DNA of 24,000 nucleotides from an endosymbiont of Acanthamoeba sp. UWC8 (GCF_000730245.1 NZ_CP004403.1:1528517-1552516); one strand, 5' to 3'. Shown: positions 9,001-12,000, counted from the first letter of the stretch. Program-made: the numbers.

Positions 9001-12000
9001 ACTTCGGTTGGCCTATTATCTTTCTATCCCTTATCGCTTTCGCCCTTATTTTAAGTGTGCTTGTAGCGAAGTATTTGCCTGAAACACACCTTGGTGAAGA
9101 CAGAAAGTCAATTTCAATTTCAAAGGTTGCTTTAAGCCTGGTTAAAGATAAAAAAATTATCGGTTTAGGAGTAATTGTAGCTGCTTGCAACGGTATTAGT
9201 TTTAGCTATTTTGCGGAGGGCTCCTTTTATCTCATAAAGTTGCTTGGATTGTCTCCAAGTGAGTACGGGTCAAGTTTTATATTAATAGCTGTAAGCACAA
9301 TGCTTGGTGGCATGACCTCTAGAAGGTTACTTAAATATCATCCATCTAAAACAATTATGAAGTATGGGCTTTTTATCATATTTTTTATAAGTGCTTTATT
9401 CGGCGGTTTTGTTTTATGCTCTACCTATATTTCTTTGCTACCGAGAAGTTGGATGGTTGCTATTACTATTATCGCACAAATGGGTATTATGTTTGGCATA
9501 TGTATGGCTACCAGTAATGCCTTGGCGATCGCTCTAATCGATTATAAATGGTGCATTGGGACAGCCTCAAGCTTATTCGGATTCTTCTATTATTGCTTAA
9601 CTTCTCTGGTTACCTTAGGTATGGGTTATTTGCATAATGGTACCTTGCTTGCAATGCCTCTATACTTCCTTGCAATCAGTACCCTTATGTTAGCAGTTCA
9701 GAGAAGGTGGCTACACGAAAGATATTTTAAATCAGAAGCTTTTAGCTAAGCTTAGGAGCTTCTTTGCATTTAATCAGTTTATACTCAAGCGCCGCAGTGC
9801 TATCTAATCTTCCTTAAAATTCAATTTTATTGTATAGAGAATTTTATTTAACAAACTATAATAAAGCTTAAAAAACTTCACACCCGTTGCTAACATTGTT
9901 CCTTGCTGCTATATAAGAAATCATAAAATTAATTGATATAAATTAAATGTTTTTTAAGAAACTTTTTGCTTTTAAGAATAGTAATTCATTAATTGCTTCT
10001 GTTATTTATAGTATATTATTTCATCTGCCGATTGTATTTAATAGGATGTCTCTAAGCATTAGCTTCCATGATAAACATGAAGTGATTGGTATTGCATTTA
10101 CAGAATTCAGTATAGCACTATTTTTCACTTACATATTATTTTCATTAATTAGCCTGTTACGTTATTTATATATGGTTCTGATACCATTATTCTTTTGCTT
10201 TGGTGGAGCTTCAAATTATTATATATATAACTTTGGTAAAGTTTTTGATATCGGCGTATTACAGGATATCATTTCCGTAGAGCTGGATTTAACTCTGGAG
10301 TATCTAAGTTTTAAATTAGTATTGTTTATCTTTATAAGCTTAGCCTTAAGCTTATTTATTATTTTTTCTAAAAAGTTTAGACTTAAAGCTCCCTATTATA
10401 TGGCTTTAATAGCAACTATTATTACTTCATATTTAGTTGCTACTTATTTTGATTATAAGAAGCATAAATTATATATTAATCGAATAGTGCCTCAAAGCTA
10501 TATGCCGTTTAATGTATTTTATAATACGGATCTTTATATGAGAAAATACGGTGTATTTAACAAGCAAAAAGCAGAGAAAGTTGACCTTACTAAAAATTTT
10601 ACCTTTCGTTTTAATAACAATGCTAAGGAACAGAAAATTGTAGTTATGGTAATCGGCGAATCAATGCGTGGAGATTTATTTTATTTAAACGGTAAAACTA
10701 ATTATCCTAATGCCCCGCAGCTTTCTAAAATAAGAAATTTAAAAAGTTTTAAAGATGCTACCTCCAGCGGCTCATCCACAAGAGTAGCGCTTCCTTATAT
10801 GTTAACTCGTGCTAAGTCCGGTAATTGGGAACAGGCAATATCTGAAAAAAGTATTATATCCGTGTTTAAGTCATTAGGGTTTAAAACAGCCTGGATTGGT
10901 GCTCAAGGTGCTTTTGCTAGCTTCGATTATACTTATGGACCTATTATCATGGAGGCAGATAAAATTATTACTAGGCCTGATATTAGAAAAGACTCGGGAG
11001 AAGGAAATATATATGATGAATATTTATTACTGTATTTAGACAAATTTTTGCAAGCAAATGAATCTGATAATTTATTTATTGTTCTTCATATGTATGGAAG
11101 CCATTGGAATTTTGATGAAAGGTACCCGGAGAAATTTAAAAAATTTACTCCTACTTGTGAGTCATCATCCCCAGCGAGCTGTGCTCACGAGCAGCTTTTA
11201 AATTCTTACCATAATACAATTCTTTACTCGGATTGGGTATTAAGCAAAATTATTGAAAGATTTGAAAATAAAGATGCTTTTTTAATGTATGCTTCGGATC
11301 ATGGATTTTCACTTTTTGAAAAACATTATTTCGGTAATGCTTATGAAGGAAAAGAGCATCTTAAAGAACAATATGATATAGCAATGTTTGCTTGGGGCTC
11401 AGATAAATATATTAAAAGAAACGGTAAGGCTTTTAAAACTATAAAGTCTCAAGATAAAGTATCCCACGATTATTTATTTCATTCTCTTCTTGGCTGTTCA
11501 AACGTTAAATCAAAGGTTATTGAGCAGAACTTAAATCTTTGTTATAAAAAAAATAATAGTGTAAGAAGCAAGTAGCTTATTTAAGCTATAAAAAAGTATT
11601 TTAATAAAAATACAAAACACCTTAACTCACCTGGTGCCGAAGAGAGGATTTGAACCTCCGACCTACTGATTACGAATCGGATTAATAATTATTTTAAGTC
11701 ATTAAAAATGACAAGTTAAGTTATTGTATTTTATAGCTTAATTGATTGCGATATTTACAAATTTCTTCCTACTTTTTGTTTCGTGTACTAACTGTGTACT
11801 AAAGAAGGAGAGAATTATAGAGAAAAGCACAAGAATTTACCACCAATAGATTGCAAGCTTTAAAAATAAAAATACTACTTGAGAGGCATATTTATTCTTA
11901 CTAGATATAAATATAAGTGGTGTCTAAATGCTTAGTTAACTTAACAAGGTATTAATAATATTTTAATAACAATTCCAAATTAATTTTAACTAATAAAGCA

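Follow-up and report, generated by a model that had tools for sequence, protein, structure and literature searches.

The window analysed here, a stretch of 24,000 nt (positions 1528517-1552516 of the single 1,615,277-bp contig CP004403 of a Midichloriaceae endosymbiont of Acanthamoeba sp. UWC8), contains a leftover copy of the 3' end of tRNA-Thr(CGU). Judged from the DNA sequence, this fragment is the attR-type distal junction of an element whose tRNA-targeting tyrosine integrase would cross over at the anticodon loop. Such att scars, left by prophages that target tRNA genes, are an ordinary, known feature. The added twist is that the ends of the element beside it are mismatched in the published assembly, and our data suggest that the mismatch probably arose from one ~625-kb inversion between inverted copies of a temperate prophage.

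The tRNA-Thr(CGU) fragment and its junction

The core of the junction lies on the minus strand at window positions 11629-11678 and agrees with the 3' end of tRNA-Thr(CGU) at 50 of 50 positions (BLAST E ~2e-22), far beyond what chance would give. It is composed of the last 47 nt of the tRNA gene (11678-11632) and a following GGT (11631-11629), so that the identity block opens at the anticodon region with GATTCGTAATC... and closes at CCA and GGT. Read from 11678 to 11632, the minus strand contains the last two bases of the 5' anticodon-stem strand, the loop TTCGTAA with its anticodon CGT, the variable loop, the T-arm, the 3' acceptor strand CTTCGGC, the discriminator A, and CCA, which ends at 11632. 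The genome harbors only three copies of this core, all 100% identical, located in the window, at 861747-861796 and at 914673-914722. The sole tRNA-Thr(CGU) gene among the 36 tRNA genes of the genome lies at 861719-861793 on the plus strand, 678 kb from the fragment and on the opposite strand. At the window site, the complete cloverleaf, the 5' acceptor strand and the D-arm of a functional tRNA are all missing. ARAGORN predicted no tRNA over the 24,000-nt window, the Rfam tRNA model scored 17.7 bits at the fragment, below its gathering score of 29, and the 5' acceptor heptamer GCCGAAG is absent from the minus strand of the entire window. The first-pass annotation had described an orphan 3' half of a tRNA-Thr(CGU)-like gene that lacks both the D-arm and the 5' acceptor strand, and this description is accurate: no complete tRNA is predicted at the locus, and a matching intact tRNA is present elsewhere on the replicon. 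The span given for it, 11632-11681, encloses a real fragment, but the tRNA identity begins at 11678 and the right end was placed three bases too far; positions 11679-11681 belong to the element and disrupt the anticodon stem.

The site is arranged in the order distal arm, core, 53-nt flank and 3' end of an EptA-like gene. This gene, encoding a phosphoethanolamine transferase (9947-11575, plus strand; Pfam Sulfatase and EptA_B_N), is followed from its stop codon to the core by the flank at 11576-11628 (GAGTTAAGG...eptA), which is probably the native downstream flank (B') of the ancestral tRNA-Thr gene. On the other side of the core, the distal (P') arm (11679-11830, minus strand) shares ~92% identity with an arm at 914.5 kb and contains a double heptamer, AGTACAC-N4-AGTACAC (11783-11800, minus strand). 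Together with its conserved flanks, the double heptamer occurs exactly six times in 1.6 Mb, always in the arms of tRNA-linked elements and always in one orientation relative to the tRNA. Three copies are found ~160-180 nt downstream of tRNA-Lys, tRNA-Thr and tRNA-Arg, on the integrase side, and the other three ~105 nt upstream of tRNA 3' fragments, at 914551, at 916840 and at window 11783-11800. This distribution points to putative arm-type sites, to which the integrases would bind. An arm-motif scan of viral contigs returned a single provirus call, 100% identical to the same genome and therefore not independent.

Three related P4-type integrase genes are present in the genome, each just downstream of a tRNA gene that heads an element: tRNA-Lys(UUU) at 407 kb, tRNA-Thr(CGU) at 862 kb and, on the minus strand, tRNA-Arg(ACG) at 1589 kb. 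The integrase gene at tRNA-Lys(UUU) is truncated (301 aa). Those at tRNA-Thr and tRNA-Arg are full length (389 aa and 390 aa), and both products have the Pfam domains Phage_integrase (catalytic), Arm-DNA-bind_3 and Phage_int_SAM_3. The gene for the 390-aa integrase (genome 1587888-1589060, minus strand) adjoins the intact tRNA-Arg(ACG) gene (genome 1589387-1589463, minus strand). No distal repeat was detected for the tRNA-Lys(UUU) island (genome 407001-419300, L059). The earlier reading of the fragment as the distal scar of an integrase crossing over in the anticodon loop is in agreement with the 3'-tRNA repeat, the integrases with arm-binding domains and the arm motifs.

The tRNA-gene att sites of P4-type tyrosine integrases reportedly include a sublocation at the anticodon loop. 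The junction resembles these sites in its identity block, which runs from the anticodon loop to just past the CCA, in an integrase with an arm-binding N-terminal domain whose gene adjoins the reconstituted tRNA, in the displaced 3' half at the far end, and in the motifs repeated in both arms. Unlike these sites, a tRNA-Thr half here closes an element headed by tRNA-Arg, and the cognate attL lies 678 kb off in the genome as assembled.

A prophage remnant and the ends of its element

To the left of the junction lie chromosomal envelope genes (glycosyltransferases, an MFS transporter and the EptA-like transferase), and to the right the effector, toxin-antitoxin and phage-type genes that the first-pass annotation had placed there, consisting of a prophage and cargo genes. 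The prophage part is a 12.8-kb remnant that runs on the plus strand from 11679 to 24000 and on to window-equivalent position 24385, mostly at 88-100% nucleotide identity to genome 902617-914722, apart from one divergent block. From 11629 to window-equivalent 24385, the sequence is collinear, in inverted orientation, with the outer 12 kb of a second, 53-kb prophage. The genes of the remnant follow in the order deaminase, ankyrin protein, two-gene cassette, MazF-type pair, AlpA-like HTH, AAA_24, split primase/helicase and DUF6362. The remnant has no structural genes and ends inside a ParB-methyltransferase gene. The two copies are not equally similar throughout: identity is ~91% by the core, nearly 100% from 12820 to 14968, then 96 falling to 88%, 50-77% over the helicase region, and 90-93% at the far end. 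The near-identical tract is 2.15 kb long (12820-14968; counterpart at genome 911.4-913.6 kb), with exact runs of 276, 434, 590 and 833 nt and three differing positions inside. The tract reflects either a past crossover or a recent gene conversion, or else a swap or collapse of copies in the assembly. The MazF-type toxin gene and its upstream small ORF (16938-17533, minus strand; Pfam PemK_toxin) have no counterpart in the 53-kb prophage, which has ~150 nt at that position. The primase/helicase is split into ORFs of 391 aa and 369 aa (20506-22787, plus strand) where the 53-kb prophage has a single 703-aa gene, and the split may be a 454 homopolymer error.

The 53-kb prophage, at genome 861.7-914.7 kb (861719-914747), looks complete and is of the siphovirus type. 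It is headed by tRNA-Thr(CGU) and bounded by a 75-nt perfect direct repeat. Its structural genes encode a large terminase, portal, protease, major head protein, tape measure and tail proteins, a minor tail protein being among the siphovirus-type tail genes. In addition, it carries the integrase, cargo, the ParB-methyltransferase, the 703-aa primase/helicase, AAA_24 and the AlpA-like HTH gene, with a deaminase, an ankyrin gene and the two-gene cassette forming the cargo block at its outer end. Because of the 75-nt perfect repeat, the full integrase and the AlpA-like gene, the prophage may still be able to excise. The large terminase shares 52-54% identity with the terminases of Wolbachia WO phages. 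This degree of identity, and the ankyrin and toxin-type cargo at the ends, are shared with phage WO and the lambda-like phages of intracellular alphaproteobacteria; unlike phage WO, the 53-kb prophage uses a tRNA-specific P4-type tyrosine integrase and has siphovirus-type tail genes.

Beyond the remnant, the contiguous sequence continues with ~35 kb of effector and toxin cargo, then the 390-aa integrase, then tRNA-Arg(ACG). The cargo includes ankyrin proteins, a 965-aa deaminase/RickCE-like protein, and a 2970-aa protein (L015:3787-12699, minus strand) with SecA-DEAD/helicase, SseC-like, LysM and C-terminal AHH nuclease domains; this last protein resembles a giant effector of the polymorphic-toxin type. 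The large LysM/toxin-like genes at tRNA-Lys(UUU) share 88-95% DNA identity with parts of two genes near tRNA-Arg (1573867-1585215, L015), one encoding 576 aa and the other, matched in its 3' part, the 2970-aa protein. An intact tRNA and an integrase had been predicted beyond position 24000 on the minus strand, and both are there, ~49 kb to the right, but the tRNA is Arg(ACG). The tRNA-Thr(CGU) gene with its own integrase, expected on this side, lies instead 678 kb away on the other strand and heads the separate 53-kb prophage. In the genome as published, the cognate intact tRNA and integrase are thus not at the other end of the fragment's own contiguous element. With non-matching ends (tRNA-Thr versus tRNA-Arg), the right-hand element is therefore a chimera rather than a simple island.

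A second mismatch is found at 914.7-917.0 kb, where a second tRNA-Thr core is followed by a 105-nt arm stump, 2 kb of further sequence, and a distal arm with an orphan 3' half of tRNA-Arg. The 105 nt after the 914.7-kb core match the integrase-side arm of the tRNA-Thr prophage, including the block CTAACCTATTGTATTT. As this block is common to the integrase-side arms of all three elements, the sequence is phage arm and not chromosome. The tRNA-Arg orphan half (46 nt, genome 916964-917009, plus strand) has its own distal arm motif, lies 2.2 kb past the end of the tRNA-Thr prophage, and is joined to the native flank of the gene. Like the tRNA-Thr core, this repeat begins exactly at the anticodon loop and reaches the 3' end. 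In two congeners, G001 (contig 69) and G002 (contig 96), tRNA-Arg(ACG) is intact with the same upstream region and an empty site, and the ~70 nt that directly follow it correspond to the ~70 nt after the orphan repeat at 917010 here. The empty sites show that a single insertion once had its two ends at what are now 1589 kb and 917 kb.

Several repeated sequences occur close to these junctions. Just past the tRNA-Arg orphan repeat lies a 1.5-kb repeat, probably an insertion sequence, with copies at 99.9-100% identity (917518-919015, 434118-435615 and 420517-421182); a 150-nt piece adjoining it is multi-copy and found at many contig ends of G001. Sequences like GGYAATA...TAGGTTACA follow tRNA-Arg(ACG) in G001 and G002 and tRNA-Thr(CGU) in G002, and recur at 917010-917030 and at the start of the tRNA-Thr prophage arm. 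They may represent a conserved signal in tRNA 3' flanks or belong to the arm of a different element family. In G002, two such tRNA genes are followed by a doubled TTCTACA motif.

Related genomes and the age of the junction

The same junction of eptA, flank, core and arm is present in G002 at ~84-91% identity, which places it before the split of the two species. The core in G002 has 3 substitutions relative to that genome's own intact tRNA-Thr, which in turn matches the window fragment perfectly; the substitutions indicate that the fragment evolves without constraint. In G001, eptA has no fragment beside it and lies 6 kb from tRNA-Thr(CGU), with an ankyrin gene related to the element cargo between them. 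This proximity supports an ancestral linkage of tRNA-Thr and eptA. The eptA homologue of G001 (L003, contig 37, 212156-213804) is interrupted by a stop around codon 105, has short multi-copy repeats on either side, and is probably a pseudogene in a rearranged patch. The region around it is made up of segments whose counterparts lie far apart in the UWC8 symbiont genome. The sequence after tRNA-Thr differs among the genomes G000, G001 and G002. Among the tRNA-Thr(CGU) loci of four other genera, none has eptA within 1.5 kb, and there is no tRNA at the eptA locus of G004.

Further to the left in the window, the glycosyltransferase/epimerase cluster (1-8300) was found in neither of the two congeners searched (G001 and G002) and may be a strain-specific surface-polysaccharide locus. 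The MFS gene left of eptA is represented in G002 by fragments only. The congener assemblies are fragmented and rearranged, that of G002 comprising 2.4 Mb in ~250 contigs, and their synteny is too scrambled to show an un-inverted gene order directly.

A probable inversion and its rivals

According to the history that we consider probable, a temperate phage with a P4-type tyrosine integrase and its own tRNA 3' half would have integrated by crossover in the anticodon loop of tRNA-Thr(CGU), displacing the 3' half on the chromosome side, which would be the window fragment. The resulting attR, consisting of P' arm, core and bacterial flank, would be inert as a tRNA and would decay neutrally. Later, the arm of the remnant would have parted from its cognate attL and become joined to the ~35 kb of cargo that ends in the second integrase at tRNA-Arg(ACG). 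Both mismatches would follow from a single recombination between related prophage copies that lie inverted to each other, with the crossover either at the cores or within or close to the 2.15-kb near-identical tract. The inverted segment would extend from ~914.7 to 1540.1 kb, which is ~625 kb or 39% of the chromosome. The succession of these steps is our inference, and so is the view that the chromosome itself was inverted and that copies were not simply swapped in the assembly.

Several observations are consistent with such an inversion. Homologous sequence in inverted orientation (12.8 kb, mostly 88-100% identical) lies at both breakpoints. The flanking markers are reciprocal, with a tRNA-Thr core next to the element headed by tRNA-Arg and a tRNA-Arg half next to the tRNA-Thr prophage, and the orientations of all four junctions are those expected from one inversion. 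When the inversion was undone in silico, the 53-kb prophage gained the eptA-linked fragment as its attR and the tRNA-Arg element became enclosed by its own repeats. In addition, the GC-skew minimum moved from 1420 kb to ~1025 kb and the replichores from 76:24 to 52:48. The sign pattern of the skew is two-phase in both arrangements and its amplitude is uninformative, so replichore balance alone bears on the inversion, and weakly. Even after this operation, the tRNA-Arg element still holds an internal, attP-like arrangement of distal arm, tRNA-Thr core and arm stump. A further event is therefore required, either tandem lysogeny or an exchange of integration modules.

Large chromosomal inversions mediated by prophages have been well described, for example in E. 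coli O157:H7 (PMC8743559) and Streptococcus pyogenes (PMC11602124). They share with our case the inverted homologous prophage at both breakpoints, the reciprocal exchange of ends, and a skew switch point within the inverted segment. Unlike them, the present case is strongly asymmetric, with skew arms of 76:24, and concerns an obligate intracellular Midichloriaceae symbiont represented by one assembly.

The attP-like order at the 914.7-kb junction, distal arm followed by core and integrase-side arm, is also what a tandem lysogen would leave, and a history built on one is possible, if doubtful. An older tRNA-Thr phage would have made the window junction, the 53-kb phage would later have inserted in front of it, and the older prophage would have recombined with the tRNA-Arg element at non-equivalent points, both hybrids losing most of their DNA. 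The intact appearance of the 53-kb prophage and the age of the window junction, which is common to G002, fit this scheme, but it requires illegitimate recombination and two large deletions, and it leaves the 2.15-kb near-identical tract unexplained except by an unrelated conversion event. A rather unlikely alternative is that the tract marks a fault in the published order, or isomers that coexist, with a mis-join inside it; the eptA-linked fragment would then really close the 53-kb prophage. The 2014 genome was sequenced on the 454 GS-FLX to 20x coverage, including a 3-kb paired-end library; Newbler served for the assembly and PCR for closure (PMC4125780; PMC5751055 table 1). With 454 reads, 3-kb mate pairs and 20x coverage (PMC4125780), the exact runs of 590 and 833 nt between the copies would be a place where such a swap could occur: runs of up to 833 nt exceed the 454 read length, so a copy swap at the finishing stage would mimic an inversion exactly. 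The reversed order would also give both elements their cognate ends and replichores of 52:48, and the prediction of tRNA-Thr(CGU) and its integrase to the right of the window would be exactly correct. However, the gaps were closed by PCR and Sanger sequencing (PMC4125780), and the copies differ at three positions within the tract and by 4-12% outside it, which indicates that the two were resolved separately. Comparable prophage-mediated inversions are, moreover, common in nature (PMC8743559 and PMC11602124).

Two other readings carry much less weight. Following the thought of coexisting isomers further, the inverted copies might be a live switch that flips 39% of the chromosome, and the tRNA-Arg element a phage that changed its specificity and retains a fossil tRNA-Thr attP; we regard this as quite improbable. 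If it were true, RecA, or the tRNA-Thr integrase acting on the two inverted cores, would carry out the recombination, the isomers would coexist, and the replication origin would alternate between a balanced and a 76:24 layout. The lack of a contiguous cognate tRNA might also suggest that the fragment has no connection with an att site and instead matches tRNA-Thr by chance, stems from insertion at a secondary site, or is a tRNA pseudogene that arose by gene duplication and is decaying; we give almost no credence to any of these origins. As in the tRNA-Arg repeat, the match sets in precisely at the anticodon loop and continues through the 3' end, and the fragment is adjoined by the same distal arm and heptamer motif as the bona fide prophage end. 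Moreover, an insertion at a secondary site would not bring along 43 nt of tRNA on the downstream side of the crossover. All three origins were rejected on the E value of ~2e-22, the shared distal arm and the heptamer motif.

Whereas PMC5751055 credits the UWC8 symbiont genome only with a count of "phage genes", our analysis brings to light an apparently intact tRNA-Thr-specific prophage in a Midichloriaceae genome. The mismatched att ends would mean, on the probable reading, that this chromosome has undergone a large inversion that unbalances its replichores; otherwise, they may point to an error in a reference genome that is used in comparative studies.
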